A DNA stretch of 31,494 bases from an uncultured virus (IMG/VR IMGVR_UViG_3300030102_003210) (IMGVR_UViG_3300030102_003210), one strand, 5' to 3'; counted from the stretch's first letter, positions 2,520 to 19,787 are shown. The notes: generated by a model not told the origin, from the sequence alone. A program made the numbers and translations.

Positions 2520-2746
2520 TCTTTCACCACCTCATCAGGAAAGAACGCATCCTCCCAAACTATCATCTCTGCTTCTGTCATTATAGTAGTAAAGATTGTT
2601 CCACTCTTCATGTGTATCTCCACATCGTAGATGTTGCTCTTCAGGATACCTTGGGAAGCAATAACCACGGAATATGCAGATACATCTGCCATGTTCAACG
2701 TGGTCATTCCTGATTCTGTGTCTAGTTTGAAGAATCTGTCCTTCAT
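2516..2746 (-). CDS. Hypothetical protein
   Basis: 76-aa ORF coupled to both neighbours. Confidence 0.7.
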   Translation of the reverse strand: MKDRFFKLDTESGMTTLNMADVSAYSVVIASQGILKSNIYDVEIHMKSGTIFTTIMTEAEMIVWEDAFFPDEVVKE

Positions 2747-3294
2747 TACTCTTCACCATCCAATACGTCTTCAGCGACCTTCACCCACTCAGGTTTTCCA
2801 ACAGGCTCTTGCCTGTAGATACCGTAGTGAACCTTCTTCGCTATCTCAGTGTTGACATCGTAAGCGATGAACTGGTTGTCACCTAGAACCGTTGCACTTT
2901 CCAACATGCTTCTCCATGTGTTGATTGTTCTCCAATCAGTCCCACTGAAGAAAGCCTGTCCGAATGGATGTGTGTGTATCCAGCACTTCAATGGCAACTT
3001 CATGCCACCTAGTTGTTTCTCTTGGTCCTTGAAACTAACAAAGCCAAACGTTCCAACGCTGATATACAAATCATCCTTGGCATCTACAATAACCTGAACC
3101 TCTCTTGGGGAGTCAAACGCCTCAAGAGACTTGTTCCAAATCACCGTGTAGAATGCCTCTGTCTGTGCATCGGGGTATGGGTATGAGAACTCAATCTGCT
3201 TGAACACGCTTCTTATGTCCTCCATCCAGTTATCATCTACTATCTCTAATCCTTCTATTCCATTTTCATTATATTCTGTTTCATCTGTTTTCAT
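2746..3294 (-). CDS. JAB/JAMM (MPN+) metalloprotease
   Basis: REVQ...WIHTHPFGQAFFSGTD fits the E-xn-HxH-x7-S-x2-D JAMM motif. Confidence 0.9.
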   Translation of the reverse strand: MKTDETEYNENGIEGLEIVDDNWMEDIRSVFKQIEFSYPYPDAQTEAFYTVIWNKSLEAFDSPREVQVIVDAKDDLYISVGTFGFVSFKDQEKQLGGMKLPLKCWIHTHPFGQAFFSGTDWRTINTWRSMLESATVLGDNQFIAYDVNTEIAKKVHYGIYRQEPVGKPEWVKVAEDVLDGEE

Positions 3295-4022: not shown

Positions 4023-4249
4023 GCATCTTTCCCCCTATATGCAGGATGTGTCTTCGGCAACCTATGCAGTCTTCTCACAATCATGTTGTTCACTAGATTG
4101 GATACAGAATCAGCACCATCTGTGAACCTCTTGCTCGCAACATCGTCGCCTGAAGGACACATCTTCTCTTCTAATTCGGTTAGGTCTATCTTGTCCATGA
4201 TGTATTTCAGGACTTCATACTCGACATGAATCTTAGAAGCCGCTCTCAT
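4019..4249 (-). CDS. Hypothetical protein
   Basis: 76-aa ORF, ATGA-coupled on both sides. Confidence 0.7.
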   Translation of the reverse strand: MRAASKIHVEYEVLKYIMDKIDLTELEEKMCPSGDDVASKRFTDGADSVSNLVNNMIVRRLHRLPKTHPAYRGKDA

Positions 4250-4863
4250 AGGTTCACCATCTTCATATCGGTCACATCCTCATTGTCATTGAACCATCTC
4301 TGAATCCACTGCACACCCATACCTGCAATCACCATGTTCATGCAGTTGATGTCCTTGGCACTACCATCCCAAGACTGTGCTTGACATGAGAAGGAACCCT
4401 CTTCACCAATGAGCAACGTATCCATCATCTTAGGGTCAACCTTGTATGAAATCAATGCCGCATTTCTACCAGTTGAGCGCAAATCTAGCCACTTCAACTT
4501 AGCATCTGACCCAAAGCCCTGCCGATACAACAAACGCCTCACAGCAAGGTTGTCTGCGCAGCATACCACCAAGTCATATCCGTGTAACTGCTTGTCAAGT
4601 AGAACGTTGAAAGGTTGGGGGTTTATGCCTCCAATACATTCAACCTTCTTCTCACCAACATCCAACTCATCATACGCTTGGTATCCAAGATTCTTGGTAT
4701 CTACCGTGTCACCATCAAAGACAGTTATGTCGTATAGATGAGTCTCAGGGACATTTATTCTCTGTGCCTGATTCATTCTCTTGAGGAACTGAGCCAAATA
4801 ACTTCCAATTCCTCCTGCTCCTATTATCATTATCTTTCTTTCTTCATTCTTCGTCATTTTCAT
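4246..4863 (-). CDS. ThiF/MoeB/E1-family ubiquitin-like activating adenylyltransferase
   Basis: IIGAGGIGS nucleotide loop, FDGDTVDTKNLGYQ, VVCCADNLAVRR, candidate catalytic Cys in FSCQ. Confidence 0.9.
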   Translation of the reverse strand: MKMTKNEERKIMIIGAGGIGSYLAQFLKRMNQAQRINVPETHLYDITVFDGDTVDTKNLGYQAYDELDVGEKKVECIGGINPQPFNVLLDKQLHGYDLVVCCADNLAVRRLLYRQGFGSDAKLKWLDLRSTGRNAALISYKVDPKMMDTLLIGEEGSFSCQAQSWDGSAKDINCMNMVIAGMGVQWIQRWFNDNEDVTDMKMVNL

Positions 4864-5080
4864 TACCTTCTAATATTTTCATTTGTATTCGTGCTTGATG
4901 AGCATCAATTATCTCATGTGTTATTCCATCCATTGTCGCACCTACAACGGATATCGCATCCTCCAAGACCGTCCTGCGAACTGTGTTCTGTATTCTTGGT
5001 AGGCTTTCGTATATCTCTATGAATGCAGAAAAGTGAATCTGCATATTTCTTAGTTTCTTTATTATATCATCCTCTTCCAT
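4844..5080 (-). CDS. Hypothetical protein
   Basis: 78-aa helical ORF between TFB and E1. Confidence 0.65.
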   Translation of the reverse strand: MEEDDIIKKLRNMQIHFSAFIEIYESLPRIQNTVRRTVLEDAISVVGATMDGITHEIIDAHQARIQMKILEGNENDEE

Positions 5081-5973
5081 TAGTATGCACCACTTAGAAA
5101 TTGTTCAACGCTCATCGCTAGAATCTTTTTCTTGTTCAATCCAATAGCACCAAGCATCTCAGGAATAGACGTTCTTATCCCCATCTCGGAACCATTCAAC
5201 GCCGCTTCTATTATCTTCTTCTGTGAGTGAGGCTCGTTCATCATCCTAGCAACTAACCAAAGTGTAGAGTTCTGCATGTTTGGCGTGTACCTGATAGTAG
5301 AGTTGCTCAACTCGCTGTTTATCCTCTCAGCCACAAGAACAACGTTCTGTCTGTAATCTGATGTGACTCCACTCATTCTATCCAGTGTGTTCCTCAATGT
5401 CATCACTGGGTCTCTGTCTGCGAAGACATAAGACTTCTTGAAGTGTCTAGCAATTTTCTTGGCATACTTCGCTATGATTGAGAACTCCACCTTGGTTTGT
5501 GCAGAGTGCTTCCTGAGTGTCACACCATAACCAGCCTCCTTCAACATGAAGTAGGACAGACCTGCTGCAATATGTTCAACAGGTATTCCCCTAGTCACCT
5601 TATCCTGAAAGAGTGAGCGATAGTTCCTTGGAACATTGTCGATTATTTGTTTCGATACATCATAATACGAAAGATACATCCTAGTATGTAGGATGGTTCT
5701 CTTCTCTGATTGGGATGCAGGTCTAGACCTAATGTTCTCTCTCTTCAATACCCAATCAGCCTTGTTATTGGTCTCCATGATGTAGGAGCCAAGCCCCTTT
5801 GAACTATCATTATCCTTGGTTGGGTTGTATCTCTCTTTAGAACTAATCCAAGATACTGTTTCCTCAAACGGTCTTACGACCTGAACCAATCCACAATCGT
5901 CACAAACAGACTCTCCCAACCTCTCATCAAATGTAGAGGAAGTGCAACTGCATTCCACGCATATCTGACTCAT
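5080..5973 (-). CDS. tfb: Transcription initiation factor IIB (TFB)-like protein
   Basis: N-terminal Zn ribbon CVEC...DERLGESVCDDCGLV, GLGS linker, helical cyclin-like repeats (RGIPVEHIAAGLSY); 297 aa. Confidence 0.85.
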   Translation of the reverse strand: MSQICVECSCTSSTFDERLGESVCDDCGLVQVVRPFEETVSWISSKERYNPTKDNDSSKGLGSYIMETNNKADWVLKRENIRSRPASQSEKRTILHTRMYLSYYDVSKQIIDNVPRNYRSLFQDKVTRGIPVEHIAAGLSYFMLKEAGYGVTLRKHSAQTKVEFSIIAKYAKKIARHFKKSYVFADRDPVMTLRNTLDRMSGVTSDYRQNVVLVAERINSELSNSTIRYTPNMQNSTLWLVARMMNEPHSQKKIIEAALNGSEMGIRTSIPEMLGAIGLNKKKILAMSVEQFLSGAY

Positions 5974-14164: not shown

Positions 14165-14169
14165 TATTC

Positions 14170-14520
14170 CACCACCATGTAAAATTGAACAACTTCGCAG
14201 TAAAGCGTTTTTGTTTTATTTTTCAATTTTTCACATTTTTCACCCCTCTCCGAGAGAAGGAGTAGTAGTAGATATGATGACATATAGTAGTAGTAGAAGA
14301 GAGTGAAATATATGTAAAATTGAAATATTAATAAAAATCTATGATTTTACACTCTCTAAGCACGTTTTTGATTTTTCACCCTGACTGAAAAATAGTGAAA
14401 AATACCAAATCAATCTGAAAAAGGTGAACAGCAAATCATATTTCATATGAGTTATATCTCATGTGATATCCATATACATATATGATATATGTTATACATA
14501 TAGGAAACGATTTTTGACAC
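14170..14520. other. AT-rich divergent control region with short repeats (candidate replication origin)
   Basis: Strand-switch point; ATGTAAAATTGAA at 14177 and 14312; AGTAGTAGTAGA at 14261 and 14286; several TTTTTCA/TGAAAAA; CATAT/ATATG-rich tract 14437-14502. Confidence 0.45.
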
Positions 14521-14727
14521 CATATCAGAAGTAGTGATGCTAGGTAGATACAAATTACTACCAAACTGTTGAGTTCGATTAATTAGGGTCTAGGAATCTC
14601 TTGTGCAAAAAGGGATTGAACCCTGAAATGCGCCTGAGAGACTCAGACACCCTGAGCCGGATTTCACCTATATAAAGGGCTGACCACCCCTAGTGTCGGC
14701 CCAGAAATTATCTGTTCCAAACCTTTT

Positions 14728-14737
14728 ACCATATGGT
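14728..14737. repeat. ACCATATGGT palindrome, copy 1
   Basis: Exact 10-bp palindrome. Confidence 0.9.
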
Positions 14738-14786
14738 AGGATGCTTTGCTATCTGACCTTATTGTAGTTGAAATCCTCTATCTGTC

Positions 14787-15185
14787 ATGCCACTGATAGT
14801 AGGGATAGAGAACGGAATAGACAAAGGATTTACAGAAAGTGATATTTCACTGGTGAATGGGTTTGCATTTGGTATGTTAGCCATGAATGCAGGTGTTGGA
14901 AGCATGAGCGTTAGATATGGTGGAGTGAAGATTACTCCTGAAGTGTTCAGAAAGAGGATGTTGATGGTCAACTTTGTGAACAAGATATATGACATGGATG
15001 CACTTTACAACAAACTAACAATCGAGTTTTGTGAAAGACTTAGAGATGCTGATTGGTCATGCAACGTGAAGACCTTGAATGATGAGGACTTTGAGGTTGC
15101 ATACACACAATGGATGAGAAGGATATCAAAAATGGACTTCGATACATATGAGCGAAAGATGAAATCAAGAGGTGAAGAAGAATGA
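14787..15185 (+). CDS. Hypothetical protein (cassette 1)
   Basis: 132 aa; ATG 20 nt after the start of GTTGAAA. Confidence 0.75.
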   Translation: MPLIVGIENGIDKGFTESDISLVNGFAFGMLAMNAGVGSMSVRYGGVKITPEVFRKRMLMVNFVNKIYDMDALYNKLTIEFCERLRDADWSCNVKTLNDEDFEVAYTQWMRRISKMDFDTYERKMKSRGEEE

Positions 15186-15436
15186 ATGAATTACCCGGAA
15201 CAGGAAATGGAATGATTGAGATGAACAAAGGAATAGAGGATGAGGTGTACGAAGTCAAGTATCTAACAGGTAAGGACTACCCACATCTATGCTCTAATTG
15301 CCAAAGTGCCGTAGACAATGCACATACATTGATTGTGGATGGATTTGCATCCGAGCAATATGTTGTTGACGACGAGGGGCCAAACATGTTGGCATACGAT
15401 AGAGGCTGGTTCGGTGAATGTGAGTGTGAGGAATGA
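15182..15436 (+). CDS. Acidic Cys-containing hypothetical protein (cassette 1)
   Basis: CSNC...CEC; ATGA coupling; GGTGA RBS. Confidence 0.7.
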   Translation: MNELPGTGNGMIEMNKGIEDEVYEVKYLTGKDYPHLCSNCQSAVDNAHTLIVDGFASEQYVVDDEGPNMLAYDRGWFGECECEE

Positions 15437-15439
15437 CCT

Positions 15440-15613
15440 ATGACGACATACAAGATAATTAGGTTCAGATTTAACGGAAACAACCGGACAATCAAGAGGG
15501 GATTAACCCTTGAAGAGGCTCAAGCACATTGTCGAGACCCTGAAACAAGTGGTTCAACCTGTTCAGACTTGAGAAAGCGTGGTCAATGGTTCGACGGATA
15601 TGCAGAGGAATAA
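15440..15613 (+). CDS. 57-aa hypothetical protein (cassette 1; absent from the ORF track)
   Basis: MTTYKIIRF...RGLTLEEAQAHCRDPETS...WFDGYAEE. Confidence 0.7.
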   Translation: MTTYKIIRFRFNGNNRTIKRGLTLEEAQAHCRDPETSGSTCSDLRKRGQWFDGYAEE

Positions 15614-15619
15614 CAATGC

Positions 15620-15633
15620 CACCCTTCGGGGTG
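15620..15633 (+). terminator. C(UUCG)G hairpin after cassette 1 genes
   Basis: CACCC-TTCG-GGGTG just after the stop; no U-tract, so the role is uncertain. Confidence 0.5.
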
Positions 15634-15655
15634 TGCTAATAGCAAAGCACACCAC

Positions 15656-15665
15656 ACCATATGGT
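15656..15665. repeat. ACCATATGGT palindrome, copy 2
   Basis: Exact match. Confidence 0.9.
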
Positions 15666-15712
15666 AGGTAACTTTGTCACCTACCTGATATACATGAACC
15701 GAACTCTTAGTT

Positions 15713-16441
15713 ATGGAGATGCTAACCATACTAGCACTGCTGTTAGCAGTGATGCTTGCTGTTGAACGCCAAGAAGAACCTAATGATGGGATGACGGATA
15801 CTGGTGAAACCACTAGGTCGAACCCTCACTATCCCATCCTCAAACAAGAGCGTGAGGAAGGAGGTGTCTTTCTTCTCAGGAAAGGTGGGAACAAGAATTT
15901 CAACATGATGAGGTTTCATGTCTGCCGAACAGGTAAGAAGGAACAGTTCTATACTCTATATCAGGAGGTTGCGATATACAATGAGTTCGGAATGAACTAT
16001 TCAATGAACTACTGCGGTAATCTATCCCATAGCCTTGCTTCTGCTGTTGAGAAGGCTAGGGTCAGAGCCATGAATGTCATCAAGTCGGGTTTCTACCATG
16101 ATGTTCATGTCGATGTCCACAAGACACCTAGAGTAGTCACCAAGAACTACTATGCCTTTACCGATGATGAGGGTAAGAATGGCATTGAGATGAAGTTGGC
16201 TAAGTCTAAGAAGTGCTACTACGGCTACCTTCAGGGGGATGCTGGCAGAAGATTCTGGGATTTGTGGAAGGAAAACGACGGATTAGTTAGCGGTAAGGAT
16301 AAAATCAAGGAAGCGGGCTTTTGGATAAAGAAGATGAATGGCGGTAGTTGGATGTTATTCATGAGAGCGCAAGCAACAAACATAGACTATGAAAAAGAGG
16401 CTATTACCTATGAGCCTGACGAGGATGTTGACATAGTTTGA
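15713..16441 (+). CDS. Hypothetical protein with an N-terminal hydrophobic anchor or signal (cassette 2)
   Basis: 242 aa; MLTILALLLAVMLAV. Confidence 0.75.
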   Translation: MEMLTILALLLAVMLAVERQEEPNDGMTDTGETTRSNPHYPILKQEREEGGVFLLRKGGNKNFNMMRFHVCRTGKKEQFYTLYQEVAIYNEFGMNYSMNYCGNLSHSLASAVEKARVRAMNVIKSGFYHDVHVDVHKTPRVVTKNYYAFTDDEGKNGIEMKLAKSKKCYYGYLQGDAGRRFWDLWKENDGLVSGKDKIKEAGFWIKKMNGGSWMLFMRAQATNIDYEKEAITYEPDEDVDIV

Positions 16442-16449
16442 ACCAAACA

Positions 16450-16476
16450 GGTCGGGGGAGTGATACTCCCTCGGCC
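16450..16476 (+). terminator. 12-bp GC-rich hairpin after the cassette 2 gene
   Basis: GGTCGGGGGAGT-GAT-ACTCCCTCGGCC, two G-U pairs on the plus strand. Confidence 0.5.
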
Positions 16477-16505
16477 TCAAGGTTATACATAGACAAAGTT
16501 CGTCA

Positions 16506-16515
16506 ACCATATGGT
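16506..16515. repeat. ACCATATGGT palindrome, copy 3
   Basis: Exact match. Confidence 0.9.
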
Positions 16516-16631
16516 AGGAGAGTAGTGACGACAGGTTACACGCATCCATTGAAGAGTCTCACTCTTCATCATCGTAGTAAATCACTGTTGTCACCTCCTA
16601 ACCCCGACAGGTTGCACCAATTCTTTTGACA
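16516..16631 (+). ncRNA. Gene-less cassette 3: candidate small hairpin RNA
   Basis: AGGAG/CTCCT, GTGACGACAG/CTGTTGTCAC and TGAAGAGT/ACTCTTCA nested stems. Confidence 0.45.
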
Positions 16632-16641
16632 ACCATATGGT
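16632..16641. repeat. ACCATATGGT palindrome, copy 4
   Basis: Exact match. Confidence 0.9.
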
Positions 16642-16730
16642 AAGCAACTTTGTCAGCATATCCCTATATGGTTGAAAACCGTCTCCGGGTGTCCGTAGAG
16701 GTCGGACAGACTAACAGGAAGTGAAAAAAT

Positions 16731-17231
16731 ATGGCAAAAAGCAATGGAAGTATAACATGGAAAGAAGACACAACATTGATTGAGGACTACTGCAACAAGT
16801 ACGCAGCCGAGATTGGCGAATTCGCTATCTCAATGCTGCAAGCGCAGTTAGCAGAGGGGAACCGAGTAATATCAAGGCAGAATTCGATAACGAAGGCTGT
16901 CAAGGCTAACCTCTCAGCGATTGAGAGAGTACACGGTATCCGCTCTCCCTTCGTATCCAACCAAGGTAAGAAGCCTCCAATGGTGCTATCCGATGATGAA
17001 GAGGCTACACGCCCCTACAGCATGGAAACCAACGAGGATGGCTACACGGTGTTGACCGTTTCGCCTGAGTTCCTCACGTTCTTCACCAAGTATTACAGGA
17101 TGAAGAACGATGACGGCTCAAGCATCGAGTCAACCGGATACAGAACCAACGAAAACCTGCTGACGAGAGTGCTACTCAACGAAGTTGAGGCTAACTGGTT
17201 GGCTGGCATCAAAAAAGCGAGGTCTGAGTAA
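16731..17231 (+). CDS. Hypothetical protein (cassette 4)
   Basis: 166 aa; RBS GGAAGTGA; flanks complementary to each other. Confidence 0.8.
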   Translation: MAKSNGSITWKEDTTLIEDYCNKYAAEIGEFAISMLQAQLAEGNRVISRQNSITKAVKANLSAIERVHGIRSPFVSNQGKKPPMVLSDDEEATRPYSMETNEDGYTVLTVSPEFLTFFTKYYRMKNDDGSSIESTGYRTNENLLTRVLLNEVEANWLAGIKKARSE

Positions 17232-17265
17232 GTCTGACCTCTTCCGACCTCTCGGACACCCAATT

Positions 17266-17281
17266 TGGCCCTTCGGGGTCA
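17266..17281 (+). terminator. C(UUCG)G hairpin after the cassette 4 gene
   Basis: TGGCCC-TTCG-GGGTCA. Confidence 0.45.
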
Positions 17282-17318
17282 TCTTGGGGTCTCCGGGCTG
17301 GCAAAGCCGCCTACTACA

Positions 17319-17328
17319 ACCATATGGT
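17319..17328. repeat. ACCATATGGT palindrome, copy 5
   Basis: Exact match. Confidence 0.9.
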
Positions 17329-17376
17329 AAAGTGCTTTGCTACTGAACCTCATAGTGTTGAAATTGAGGAGAAGAC

Positions 17377-17574
17377 ATGGAATCGGAAGCGATACTAAAC
17401 AAGCAATACCAGTATGAAGTAGAAGTCGGACACGCAAAACAAGGTTCAGACCATGTTTTGATTCTCAAGTCCCTCAAAGTTCGTGATGACAACCTAGCAG
17501 ATGTCGTCGCACAACTTGAAGCAGCACTTGAGAAAGTCAAGGACATCTTCGTAGAAGGGGGATTTGCAGAATGA
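17377..17574 (+). CDS. Hypothetical protein (cassette 5)
   Basis: 65 aa; ATG 20 nt after the start of GTTGAAA. Confidence 0.7.
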   Translation: MESEAILNKQYQYEVEVGHAKQGSDHVLILKSLKVRDDNLADVVAQLEAALEKVKDIFVEGGFAE

Positions 17575-18338
17575 GCCAAAACCACAAGAGAACCGTTGAG
17601 ATAGCATACCCTTTCGGGTTTGATAGCAGTGAGAAGGAACTTCTCAACCTTGAGTTGTTCAAGCACAAAATAGTCAACTTGGATAAGTGGGACACTGAGA
17701 TACCCTCCTATGAGCCAACGGAGTATGTTGAGACATCTTCCGTCTATCATGTCGATGTTCACAAGGATGAAGATGGCGAGTTCCAACTTTCGTTCAAGTA
17801 CAGAAGTGATGCTAGAGATGTCATCAGGCAATTGAGAACCATGATGATTTCTTGCACTGATGAAGACTTGATTGAAGAGGTAAACATCAACATCACCAAG
17901 ATTCGGGAACCGCAGTGGAGGGGAAGCACCATTCTTTTCTTGGATGCACCACATCACCTTGGTTCCTACTCTCGAAAGTTCCACATTGTCTCTGAGAACG
18001 AAGTAGGAGAAGCCAATGTCAAACTGTATGTCGATTTTACAGCATACGGATACAGCAGCACACTAACATTCACTGCTGAATGGGACACTGAGAGGGTTCA
18101 GAAAGCCAATGTTATCGAACAACACTTGGTTGACTTGCCTACCCCAATGATGGGGAAGATACAGTCTATCTTTGAGAGCGTATTCTACTCAGAGATGTTC
18201 AACAAGCCAACAGACGAACCAATAATCTCATGCAAGTTCGATGTAGTGTCACAACACTCATCAGAATGCAAGCCTTCAGTTATCGAGATGCTGAAGGAAG
18301 CGAGAGACAACGCCTCTTCTTCAGATAAGGAAGAGTGA
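17571..18338 (+). CDS. Hypothetical protein (cassette 5)
   Basis: 255 aa; ATGA coupling. Confidence 0.8.
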   Translation: MSQNHKRTVEIAYPFGFDSSEKELLNLELFKHKIVNLDKWDTEIPSYEPTEYVETSSVYHVDVHKDEDGEFQLSFKYRSDARDVIRQLRTMMISCTDEDLIEEVNINITKIREPQWRGSTILFLDAPHHLGSYSRKFHIVSENEVGEANVKLYVDFTAYGYSSTLTFTAEWDTERVQKANVIEQHLVDLPTPMMGKIQSIFESVFYSEMFNKPTDEPIISCKFDVVSQHSSECKPSVIEMLKEARDNASSSDKEE

Positions 18339-18580
18339 ACCTAGCCTTTCCTGAGCAATGAAACCAAACTGCTCACTAACACTCCACCCCTTAAGGGAAA
18401 TCTTGGGGATGATGGACATGCATCTTTTTGATATTGATTCTTCGCACAACGTCATAAGTCGTAGATGAAGCCGGAATATACTCTACGCCATCATCAGTTC
18501 TACTGTCCGTTTTGAATGCAACCTTCTCTACAAAAAGTGCCTCTGTCCTGACTTCTCGGGGTTCTGTAACAAAGTACCTT

Positions 18581-18590
18581 ACCATATGGT
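18581..18590. repeat. ACCATATGGT palindrome, copy 6
   Basis: Exact match, inside a 34-bp imperfect palindrome ACAAAGT...ACTTTGT (18569-18602). Confidence 0.9.
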
Positions 18591-18640
18591 AAGCAACTTT
18601 GTCAGTCTACCACATATATAGTTGAAATTGACTGTCTAGT

Positions 18641-18904
18641 ATGACAGAAACAAGACAACGACTGATAACCAAGTTTGGGAATCCAGCAAGAGACCAGTTC
18701 AGGGTATTCAATGAGGAAGGGCAGCATTTTCTTTCATATGAAAGGAAAATTGCGACTATTGACGGCGATAAAGTGATTTTGTATAATCCATATTGGGACA
18801 TGTATAGTTCAACGACTAATTATTATCTTCTTCAGTTCTTGAACGAGACCTCCATCCGAGATATTCGGGAGAAAGTGGCCGGAGGTGAATATAGTGTTCT
18901 TTGA
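18641..18904 (+). CDS. Hypothetical protein (cassette 6)
   Basis: 87 aa; FLSY...IA...YWDMYSSTTNYY...FL; TATATA-GTTGAAA upstream. Confidence 0.75.
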   Translation: MTETRQRLITKFGNPARDQFRVFNEEGQHFLSYERKIATIDGDKVILYNPYWDMYSSTTNYYLLQFLNETSIRDIREKVAGGEYSVL

Positions 18905-18994
18905 TGATGACTGTTAAACAAATCAACCCGCTAATTATGAAAAAATGGTCAGAATAATACGAAATATGCGTTCAGACTGATTAATTAGTAAGAT

Positions 18995-19038
18995 GGAGGG
19001 GGGGAAGCCCCGAATTGAAGCCACGCTTCCCCTCTTCC
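18995..19038 (+). terminator. 14-bp hairpin after the cassette 6 gene
   Basis: GGAGGGGGGGAAGC/GCTTCCCCTCTTCC, two G-U pairs on the plus strand. Confidence 0.45.
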
Positions 19039-19072
19039 TAACCTTCGGGGTTTAACTGGCAAAGCCGCTCCC

Positions 19073-19108
19073 ACCATATGATTGTAAATCATTTTTTACA
19101 ACCATATG
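19073..19108. repeat. Two degenerate ACCATATG copies closing the array
   Basis: ACCATATG at 19073 and 19101, separated by a TGTAAA/TTTACA inverted repeat. Confidence 0.7.
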
Positions 19109-19469
19109 CAAATTTTTTTTTGACTTTTTTGTTGGCGTTAACTTTCTTGTAAAAACAAAAAAAATGTTGTTAAAACATGGTGTAGAAACTACACTACTAT
19201 AAACCGACAACATTTCAGCATTCTTTGTGTCAGATTCCAAGGAAAACATTGAGGTGAAAAAATCGCCCTCAAATACTTCCTTCAAGATACTTCTGAACAA
19301 TGAAACTTCTAACTTTGAGTTATTCGTGAACAACATCTATTTTTATTCTGGGAATGCAAAAAAAGAAGCCAAAAAAAATTTGCTAGTGCCAAAAAAATTC
19401 CAGTCCAATTTTTGAAAAGTAAGTGGTGAAATATATATTGTCCGAGTTAATTACAGAGAAGGGGGTCCA

Positions 19470-19559
19470 ATGATGTGCAAGTATGATGGGTGTGAGATGT
19501 GGACGAGTGATTTGGATGATATGTGCTTTTACCATAGGATGTGGGGTGATGATGAATGA
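19470..19559 (+). CDS. 29-aa Cys/His microprotein
   Basis: MMCKYDGCEMWTSDLDDMCFYHRMWGDDE; first of an ATGA-coupled chain. Confidence 0.55.
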   Translation: MMCKYDGCEMWTSDLDDMCFYHRMWGDDE

Positions 19560-19633
19560 GTAAAACGAACAGTGCGATGTTCTTGAGATGTCTGGAAGAG
19601 ATGTTCAAAGAGTGGGATGATGAATCTGAATGA
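19556..19633 (+). CDS. 25-aa microprotein
   Basis: MSKTNSAMFLRCLEEMFKEWDDESE; GGGGTGA RBS; ATGA overlaps. Confidence 0.5.
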   Translation: MSKTNSAMFLRCLEEMFKEWDDESE

Positions 19634-19686
19634 TTATATGGGAATTTATTCACGGTCTTTGGTGTTGGGGTAGACTTAGATTATGA
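19630..19686 (+). CDS. 18-aa microprotein
   Basis: MIIWEFIHGLWCWGRLRL; ATGA overlaps on both sides. Confidence 0.4.
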   Translation: MIIWEFIHGLWCWGRLRL

Positions 19687-19787
19687 AAACCCATTTTGAA
19701 GGCGTATGTCTGGTTTGTGAGTGGATAAGGACTATCGAATGGTCAAGACAGGGTTGCTTCTGTCAGTTATGCGGTGAGTATGTATGA
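19683..19787 (+). CDS. 34-aa zinc-ribbon microprotein
   Basis: MKTHFEGVCLVCEW...CFCQLCGEYV; ATGA overlaps. Confidence 0.6.
   Translation: MKTHFEGVCLVCEWIRTIEWSRQGCFCQLCGEYV

Follow-up and report, generated by a model that had tools for sequence, protein, structure and literature searches.

A ten-letter palindrome divides an array of accessory-gene cassettes in an uncultured virus and its relatives

The array and its joints

The 31,494-nucleotide (nt) stretch of DNA from an uncultured virus (IMG/VR IMGVR_UViG_3300030102_003210) that was analysed here, hereafter the window, contains an array of small gene units at positions 14728-19110. The units are separated by a 10-letter palindrome, ACCATATGGT, which we call the core. 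The core occurs in six exact copies (Table 1), with one-mismatch copies at 19073, 11772 and 22323 and a further degenerate core, ACCATATGCA, at 19101. Exact and one-mismatch copies together number nine compared to an expectation of 0.61, and none of 100 shuffled sequences reached nine. Units 1 to 6 hold 3, 1, 0, 1, 2 and 1 open reading frames (ORFs), respectively, all on the plus strand. Seven of these eight ORFs match nothing in Pfam or PHROGs, and no function could be assigned to the unit 2 and unit 5 proteins from Pfam, PHROGs or a protein atlas. A first-pass annotation of this DNA, made from the sequence alone, had described six exact and two degenerate palindromes that divide the region into units of 0-3 genes with complementary arms at their ends; all of the palindromes, the gene counts and each of the arms it quoted were recovered where it had placed them.

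The array is a real, family-wide feature in related viruses. Relatives were gathered with the pattern ACCATATGGTANNNNNCTTTG, which returned 119 stretches of viral contigs; family-wide tests are based on 381 distinct sites from these relatives and on 304 distinct cassettes that group into 216 families. In all three complete relatives, the cores (6, 11 and 5 per genome) lie in a single cluster of 2.4-4.9 kb and nowhere else in genomes of 96-103 kb, and the cluster sits at the switch between the structural and replication gene blocks, beside a repeat-rich stretch that resembles an origin. Genes in the window run leftward to the left of 14164 and rightward to the right of 14787.

Joints between units have a consistent composition. 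From left to right, they comprise a GC-rich stem-loop at the 3' end of the upstream unit, a CAAAG box, a gap of 6 to 12 nt, the core, 6 nt, a CTTTG box, about 8 nt, ACC followed by a TATA-like box, and about 27 nt (or a leader of ~40 nt) before the ATG. The box to the right of the core reads (A/G)CTTTG(T/C) at a fixed distance of 6 nt, which is also the modal distance in the family, whereas the CAAAG box on the other side lies at a variable distance of 4-12 nt among relatives. The CTTTG box is present in 208 of 229 5' arms and in 199 of 229 3' arms. The left half of the joint is the more strongly folded one: the last 60 nt of relatives' units fold at -13.8 kcal/mol compared to -7.8 kcal/mol for the first 60 nt (p=1e-16). 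In the window, flanks upstream of S1, S2, S3 and S5 have stem-loops with z-scores from -3.0 to -4.9, and those of S4, S6 and S7 give no signal.

The right half of the joint resembles a promoter. The TATA-like box lies 27-29 nt from the ATG in four of the five window units that have one (units 1, 2, 5 and 6) and 67 nt away in unit 4. An ACC-TATA-like motif occurs in 63 of 154 oriented cassettes of relatives, with distances to the ATG that peak at 25-29 nt (14 cassettes) and 65-79 nt (21 cassettes). Such spacings fit an archaeal TATA box that would direct leaderless or short-leader mRNAs. Contigs from RNA libraries cover 16691-16975 in unit 4, and the coverage of its gene begins at about 16689, ~20 nt after its TATA-like box, which is a weak hint only, as contig ends are not true transcript ends. 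Bacterial promoters (sigma-70 with -35/-10 boxes and the Bacteroidetes type with -33/-7 boxes) were also considered, and their spacings misfit on reading of the sequence; they were dropped once a transcription factor B (TFB)-like gene and the TATA-to-ATG distance had come to light. The product of that gene, a 297-amino-acid (aa) protein encoded at 5080-5973 on the minus strand, matches the TFIIB zinc ribbon at 23.6 bits, below the Pfam curated cut-off of 29, and its residues 16-178 match TFIIB chains weakly (E=0.1). Its homologues have the TFIIB zinc ribbon, and three of them also have a TFIIB cyclin repeat. The protein could conceivably steer host RNA polymerase to viral ACC-TATA promoters.

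Unit 3 stands apart from the other units in its content. Its minus strand has a Shine-Dalgarno-like AGGAGGTGA (about 16599 to 16591) followed by a micro-ORF (about 16585 to 16559) for an 8-residue peptide that ends in acidic residues. The combination of a Shine-Dalgarno-like box with an M-x-(D/E) run recurs in 12 of 40 cassettes of relatives that are shorter than 200 nt, in several unrelated families, and the orientation of micro-ORF cassettes of this type relative to their neighbours is free.

Table 1. Coordinates of cores, units and edge features of the array (nt, plus-strand numbering)
Feature	Position	Strand	Details
Core S1, left edge of array	14728-14737		exact ACCATATGGT; no CAAAG box on its left
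Unit 1, promoter-like arm	14738-14786	+	CTTTG 14744-14748; TATA-like ACCTTATTG 14756-14764, 28 nt before ATG 14787
Unit 1, cargo	14787-15613	+	ORFs 14787-15185, 15182-15436, 15440-15613; no family matches
Unit 1, end	15619-15647	+	stem-loop 15619-15635 (minimum free energy z=-3.0); CAAAG 15643-15647
Core S2	15656-15665		exact ACCATATGGT
Unit 2	15666-16505	+	CTTTG 15672; TATA-like 15683; ORF 15713-16441 (242 aa); stem-loop 16450-16476; CAAAG 16494
Core S3	16506-16515		exact ACCATATGGT
Unit 3	16516-16631	-	116-nt mini-cassette without CTTTG arms
Core S4	16632-16641		exact ACCATATGGT
Unit 4	16642-17318	+	CTTTG 16648; TATA-like 16661-16669; ORF 16731-17231 (166 aa); stem-loop 17267-17280; CAAAG 17302
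Core S5	17319-17328		exact ACCATATGGT
Unit 5	17329-18580	+	CTTTG 17335; TATA-like 17347; ORFs 17377-17574 and 17571-18338; CAAAG 18570
Core S6	18581-18590		exact ACCATATGGT
Unit 6	18591-19072	+	CTTTG 18597; TATA-like 18610; ORF 18641-18904 (87 aa, phrog_21575); stem-loop 19040-19052; CAAAG 19060
Right edge of array	19073-19110		degenerate cores ACCATATGAT (19073) and ACCATATGCA (19101), T-runs after
Mini-unit between degenerate cores	19083-19100		18-nt hairpin TGTAAA...TTTACA

Matched ends of a cassette

The two ends of a cassette tend to match each other better than they match the remaining ends of their locus. In the window, each 24-nt arm on the right of a site was scored against the 24-nt arms on the left of all later sites. 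In the resulting 6x6 matrix, the own-cassette diagonal sums to 53, which is reached by only 1 of 720 permutations (1 of 120 without unit 3, which has no CTTTG arms and an own-arm score of 3). The matrix is not free of ties: right arms R1 and R5 both score 11 with left arm L2, and R2 scores 10 with L6 but 9 with its own L3. The same comparison in relatives gives a clear, although small, excess. Local alignment of 24-nt arms gives mean scores of 7.81 for the inner arms of a cassette, 6.16 for the two arms of the same site and 6.09 for random pairs. Own ends score 7.84 compared to 6.47 for other arms of the same locus (266 cassettes, p=6e-12), and 7.66 compared to 6.46 when one cassette per family is retained (207 families, p=7e-8). 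In 44 of these 207 families, compared to 29.4 expected, no other arm scores as high as the own left arm. The proposal in the first-pass annotation that arms pair within their own cassette and vary between units is thus borne out in the window and, as a modest excess, across the family, where the covariation check that it recommended also favoured own ends.

Controls for distance and composition narrow the source of this excess. In 272 cassettes, inner arms score 7.89, outer arms 6.47, direct-repeat pairs 6.74 and 6.92, same-site arms 6.21 and the baseline 6.52. Gene conversion driven by proximity was rejected because outer arms, which lie at almost equal distance, have no excess. When arms are aligned without gaps and anchored on CTTTG, own ends share 5.49 of 14 variable letters, compared to 4.69 for other ends, 4.39 for the same site and 4.80 for outer arms, with the excess located at positions -3 to +4 around CTTTG. 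Part of it comes from two variants of the box (ACTTTGT or GCTTTGC), with positions -1 and +1 complementary in 66% of arms compared to 15% in a slid control. An artefact at the level of these two classes was discounted, in that own ends remain ahead when -1 and +1 are removed (4.88 compared to 4.26 of 14, p=6e-4). Arms that form local hairpins with CTTTG in the loop were also rejected: covariation is limited to the -1:+1 pair, and pairs -2 to -6 behave like the control. The CTTTG arm is a 7-letter box with two variants (A..T and G..C) and no real stem.

Evolutionary comparison of orthologous cassettes points in the same direction. Orthologues of unit 4 carry concordant changes on both arms, with CGA/CGA in relative L057 and TTA/TTA in relative L034. 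Among 93 orthologue pairs, which are not independent of one another, 64 of 346 doubly changed positions are concordant, compared to 25 of 297 in a slid control. Arm co-variation is therefore real but modest, and it is limited to a box of ~13 nt around CTTTG.

Matching of this kind could reflect folding of a single strand. The first-pass annotation had proposed that the plus strand, as read-through RNA or as single-stranded DNA, pairs cassette ends into a chain of closed loops, which would serve processing, circularisation or single-strand exchange, and it had noted that most mismatches between arms are G-T. Complementarity of the ends does exceed chance, both in the window and across the family, the few mismatches in the window are mostly G-T by eye, and the 18-nt mini-unit at 19083-19100 keeps its stem through a two-sided change in L034. 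A preference for G:T would be expected of an RNA stem or of folding by one strand, and none is seen family-wide: the 120 mismatches in 63 oriented cassettes with well-aligned arms include 29 G:T/T:G and 27 A:C/C:A (p=0.89), so that the G-T observation holds for the window and fails for the family. Because the TATA-like box lies downstream of the 5' arm, this arm would fall outside the cassette's own transcript, and units occur in both orientations within one array; among 77 adjacent ORF-bearing pairs in relatives' arrays, 58 have the same and 19 have opposite orientation. RNA-library contigs bridge no core, which carries little weight as contigs alone were available, and no Rfam family is found. 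The chain of RNA loops is rejected as the main explanation because mismatches lack strand bias, the 5' arm is upstream of the promoter-like box and both orientations occur; we consider single-strand folding in any of its forms highly improbable. The matched ends look like a DNA-level feature.

A purely regulatory role is a more serious alternative. A dimeric transcription factor of the virus or host could bind the palindrome together with the two CTTTG boxes as a symmetric site upstream of each promoter, cassette turnover could be ordinary homologous recombination among the repeated promoter/terminator modules, as in the T4-type phages discussed below, and matched ends could be a side effect of, for example, whole-allele exchange. 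With a constant spacing to the core and the TATA-like box immediately downstream, the 5' arm is placed as such a site would be, and about 90% of both arms carry the box. Direct-repeat arm pairs score slightly over baseline (6.92 compared to 6.52), and two observations described below, the lack of a detected recombinase and the directly repeated left arms in L034, agree with it as well. A regulatory site needs only a consensus, however, which leaves unexplained both the higher score of inner arms relative to outer and same-site arms and the concordant double changes in orthologues. A box that wanders between 4 and 12 nt from the core on the 3' side is also awkward for a rigid dimer site. On balance, we regard regulation alone as unlikely, although it deserves more weight than folding.

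Exchange of units at the cores

Cassettes have been lost, gained, inverted and reordered at ACCATATGGT, as was found by comparing the window with its three closest relatives, whose backbones are about 78-85% identical, and by aligning relatives with each other as the first-pass annotation had advised. Unit 2 is missing in its entirety from L057, with one core in its place. In L057, unit 3 (116 nt) stands between two cores in base-for-base inverted form, and the array of this relative ends with another inverted copy. At that same place, just left of 19073, L034 carries an extra unit of 449 nt where the window is empty. Whichever unit fills this place, it has ACCATATGGT as its left core and ACCATATGAT as its right one, which places the exchange point to the left of core position 8. 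The extra unit in L034 is flanked by directly repeated left arms, in this one case. Cassette order differs between arrays of relatives through moves, insertions and duplications. Cassette F20, which is 97% identical on two contigs, loses homology exactly at the left core, and similarity on its right side continues ~50 nt past the core. A variant contig from a public run diverges from the window at 18589, at the end of core S6. Across the family, 5.0% of 684 internal homology ends fall within 8 nt of a core centre compared to 1.1% for random positions, which is an enrichment of about 4.5-fold, and 35 lie just past the core. The first-pass annotation had reserved the reading of a mere repeated binding site for the outcome that arms match no better within than between cassettes and breakpoints ignore the palindrome; instead, arms match better within cassettes and breakpoints are enriched at the core.

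Exchange is not confined to cores. Population variants and L057 also diverge at 15180-15189, in the overlap of the first and second genes of unit 1, where there is no palindrome, so genes within a unit have also been swapped at gene boundaries. Arrays appear to diverge or swap alleles faster than the rest of the genome: backbones that are 99.3% identical (L063 and L074) and 96.7% identical (L045 and L023) have array cassettes with identities of 91-99.7% and 90-98.5%, respectively. Recent horizontal transfer between distant backbones was considered and rejected, with cassette identity following backbone identity in scorable pairs.

Transposition offers another route to these patterns. Units could be non-autonomous transposable cassettes with terminal inverted repeats composed of the CTTTG-box arms and TGGT/ACCA termini, mobilised by a transposase in trans with duplication of a TA or CATATG target, so that ACCATATGGT would be a composite of the duplicated target and the ends of two elements; the target duplication would then be hidden within the palindrome. 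Inverted-repeat ends matched within a unit are present, in a statistical sense and over the ~13-nt box. Both orientations occur (the 19 opposed pairs among relatives and the inverted unit 3), and the right-edge cores ACCATATGAT and ACCATATGCA have an intact left half and a degenerate right half, like an element end joined to flanking DNA. The leftmost core is intact in both halves, though, with no unit on its left, and no transposase family was found among the 82 scanned ORFs of the complete relative G002. One array per genome further implies that any transposition is confined to existing joints. Transposable cassettes therefore seem to us a rather remote explanation, if less so than folding.

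The account that we favour, with guarded confidence, is that the region is an accessory-gene array in which ACCATATGGT forms the centre of promoter/terminator joints where units exchange, with matched ends representing the two halves of a palindromic joint. The right half of the joint would be an archaeal-type promoter with an upstream factor-binding site, the left half would end and insulate the preceding unit, and the core would be the preferred crossover point. A unit might leave as a circle (or as a unit bounded by inverted repeats), whereupon its two arms would flank one core and form an extended palindrome. Recombination inside a core would then place the palindrome halves at both ends of the inserted unit. 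Under this proposal, arms would match because the halves of a single palindromic joint travel together in each cassette. The catalyst could be general recombination machinery of the virus or host, as in the module shuffling of T4-type phages discussed below, or an unrecognised site-specific enzyme. Hypothetical circle junctions fold better than genomic junctions (-8.4 compared to -6.6 kcal/mol, p=3e-11).

Several observations weigh against this account. The own-end match is weak for most cassettes, with the own end as best partner in 21% compared to 14% expected, and one-sided arm changes (567) far exceed the 64 concordant ones. Just 5% of homology ends are at cores and other breakpoints exist, such as 15180-15189 inside unit 1. 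The repeated left arms of L034 are more readily explained by ordinary homologous recombination than by a crossover restricted to the core. Integrase family PF00589 is absent from four related records, three of them complete, in a search whose control found it in 14 of 14 genomes, and comparison of 82 of the 126 ORFs of G002 with Pfam identified no recombinase or transposase family. No circle or inversion junction was seen among publicly available assembled contigs, which has little weight as assembly drops rare forms and uncovered parts are uninformative. The TFIIB zinc-ribbon score in the window is below its cut-off, and transcription starts, factor binding and host are all deduced from sequence.

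A bolder version of the same idea is tentative and, in our view, rather doubtful. Abundant archaeal viruses of the ocean might run an integron-like exchange without an integron integrase, in which cassettes leave as circles with a hairpin-forming junction, made of cassette-specific CTTTG-box arms on either side of ACCATATGGT, and re-enter any array by strand exchange at the palindrome centre through an unrecognised virus or host enzyme, with selection on the folded or symmetric junction keeping the ends matched. The first-pass annotation had suggested an integron-like system; cassette exchange at the palindrome is supported, while the integron remains an analogy only, given that no integrase is found in three complete relatives and units have promoter-like elements of their own. 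Use of a host dif-like site was rejected: among 185,579 species genomes the extended palindrome occurs in 28 stretches, 26 of which are single occurrences in unrelated bacteria, at about chance level. The other two (L145 and L146) overlap on NZ_NZTP01000027.1 (14,756 bp), a contig with six cores in a metagenome-assembled genome of Altibacter, a flavobacterium. This contig is homologous to viral loci L010, L076 and L062 and is most likely a mis-binned contig from the same virus group.

The virus and comparable systems

The window most likely represents a magrovirus-like tailed virus of marine archaea, with a host predicted from gene content. Magroviruses are viruses of Marine Group II archaea, or Poseidoniales, and are described as having head-tail morphogenetic genes, an archaeal-type replication set, two ATP-dependent ligases of which one is in the structural module, and, in some groups, a split DNA polymerase (PMC5434244). 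The assignment is made because the gene set of the window and of a complete relative matches these traits. Pfam matches in the window include an ATP-dependent DNA ligase with its N-terminal domain, a B12-dependent ribonucleotide reductase, ThiF and a pyrimidine-dimer glycosylase (Pyr_excise). The complete relative, G002, is 99,250 bp long with terminal repeats and carries the same motif. The 82 ORFs scanned include split PolB, RFC, two ATP-dependent ligases (one inside the structural block), ERCC4, a Cas4-like nuclease, UvrD helicase, a TFIIB-ribbon protein, ThiF and head-tail genes. G002 thus shows the traits described for magroviruses, and it shares with the window the motif, Pyr_excise, the TFB-like protein, ThiF and ligase. 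GenBank phages gave no DNA match to the window and no protein match for two window proteins, and tRNA and Rfam searches of the window found nothing.

Other features of the window lie outside the array. A ThiF-family E1-like protein (4246-4863, minus strand, E=2.7e-14) is encoded near a weak JAB-domain match that is below its cut-off (2746-3294, minus strand, E=0.0016). Together they raise the possibility of a viral ubiquitin-like modification module; G002 encodes ThiF as well. The interval at 14165-14727, which separates the replication genes from the array, is gene-free and AT-rich, with short TTTTTCAC-like direct repeats and ATAT-rich runs; the equivalent place in G002 (58128-59450) has a (CT)n run and repeated GAGAATGAGAAA-like words. 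The repeat-rich stretch adjoining the array may be a replication origin in both genomes. To the right of the array, ~700 nt (19083-19780) contain extended runs of T and of A, with no ORFs other than small, doubtful ones, and the next gene block begins at 19784.

Magroviruses rank among the most abundant viruses in surface ocean waters, and both they and their hosts are uncultured. The joint provides a ready-made marker for magrovirus promoters and for a block of rapidly changing accessory genes, whose role is probably in host takeover or counter-defence, and it could be a concrete site of gene shuffling between co-infecting viruses. An invariant palindrome with cassette-matched inverted ends suggests that recombination takes place at a set position; should an enzyme act on the core, it would represent a new site-specific recombination system. 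Our literature search found no description of the motif or system, and the main text of two main magrovirus papers contains neither 'palindrom' nor 'promoter'.

Among known systems, pdif modules are plasmid gene modules bounded by inverted Xer-type sites that are short and nearly palindromic. The array resembles them in its discrete modules, short near-palindromic boundaries and varied contexts and orientations. Xer-type site architecture is a pdif feature. For the extended palindrome of the array, no host-chromosome copy was found in the 185,579 species genomes beyond single occurrences at chance level. Integrons offer another parallel: the ends of an integron cassette derive from one imperfect palindrome, attC, whose sequence varies while its complementarity is kept, and cassettes are modelled as circles. 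Both systems have arrays of small cassettes with complementary ends that vary by cassette and both invite a circular cassette model. The array differs in having no IntI (PF00589, in the four related records), no attI and no common promoter, with each unit instead carrying its own promoter-like box and units lying in both orientations. Nor is there a complete attC-like palindrome at each site, where same-site arms score 6.21 compared to a background of 6.52, and crossover here would sit at the centre of the palindrome rather than at its edge.

The nearest counterparts are the promoter-early stem-loops (PeSLs) of T4-type phages, which are promoter and stem-loop modules that flank ORFans, mediate insertions and deletions and have been linked to mini-circles (Arbiol et al. 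2010, PMC2839356; Comeau et al. 2014, PMC4122927), and which have themselves been compared with integrons (PMC2839356). In both systems, as far as these accounts describe PeSLs, composite promoter and stem-loop modules lie between small ORFans in a hyperplastic region, relatives differ by indels or replacements at the modules, circular intermediates are proposed and no dedicated recombinase is known. The array has a putative host-type promoter box with a stem-loop, an ORFan-rich region and indels at modules, with most homology ends lying elsewhere. It lacks the sigma-70 promoter of a T4-type phage; its box is TATA-like and its virus has archaeal-type genes. A related arrangement is reported for the haloarchaeal myovirus HGTV-1, in which a TATA-like box and an inverted repeat precede most ORFs of one genome arm, a motif that its authors likened to PeSLs and shuffling (PMC3950731). 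Judged from that review description alone, HGTV-1 is similar to the window virus as an archaeal tailed virus with a TATA-like box and inverted repeat, and it differs in viral lineage and host. PeSLs, in the published accounts drawn on here, lack an invariant palindromic core, and inverted arms matched by cassette are not reported for them. Array joints are an analogue of PeSLs, not a homologue, and they would provide a second, archaeal example of the principle that regulatory joints double as recombination joints. What is new here compared to PeSLs is the invariant 10-bp palindrome, the inverted box at both ends of a unit and the matching of those ends at cassette level.

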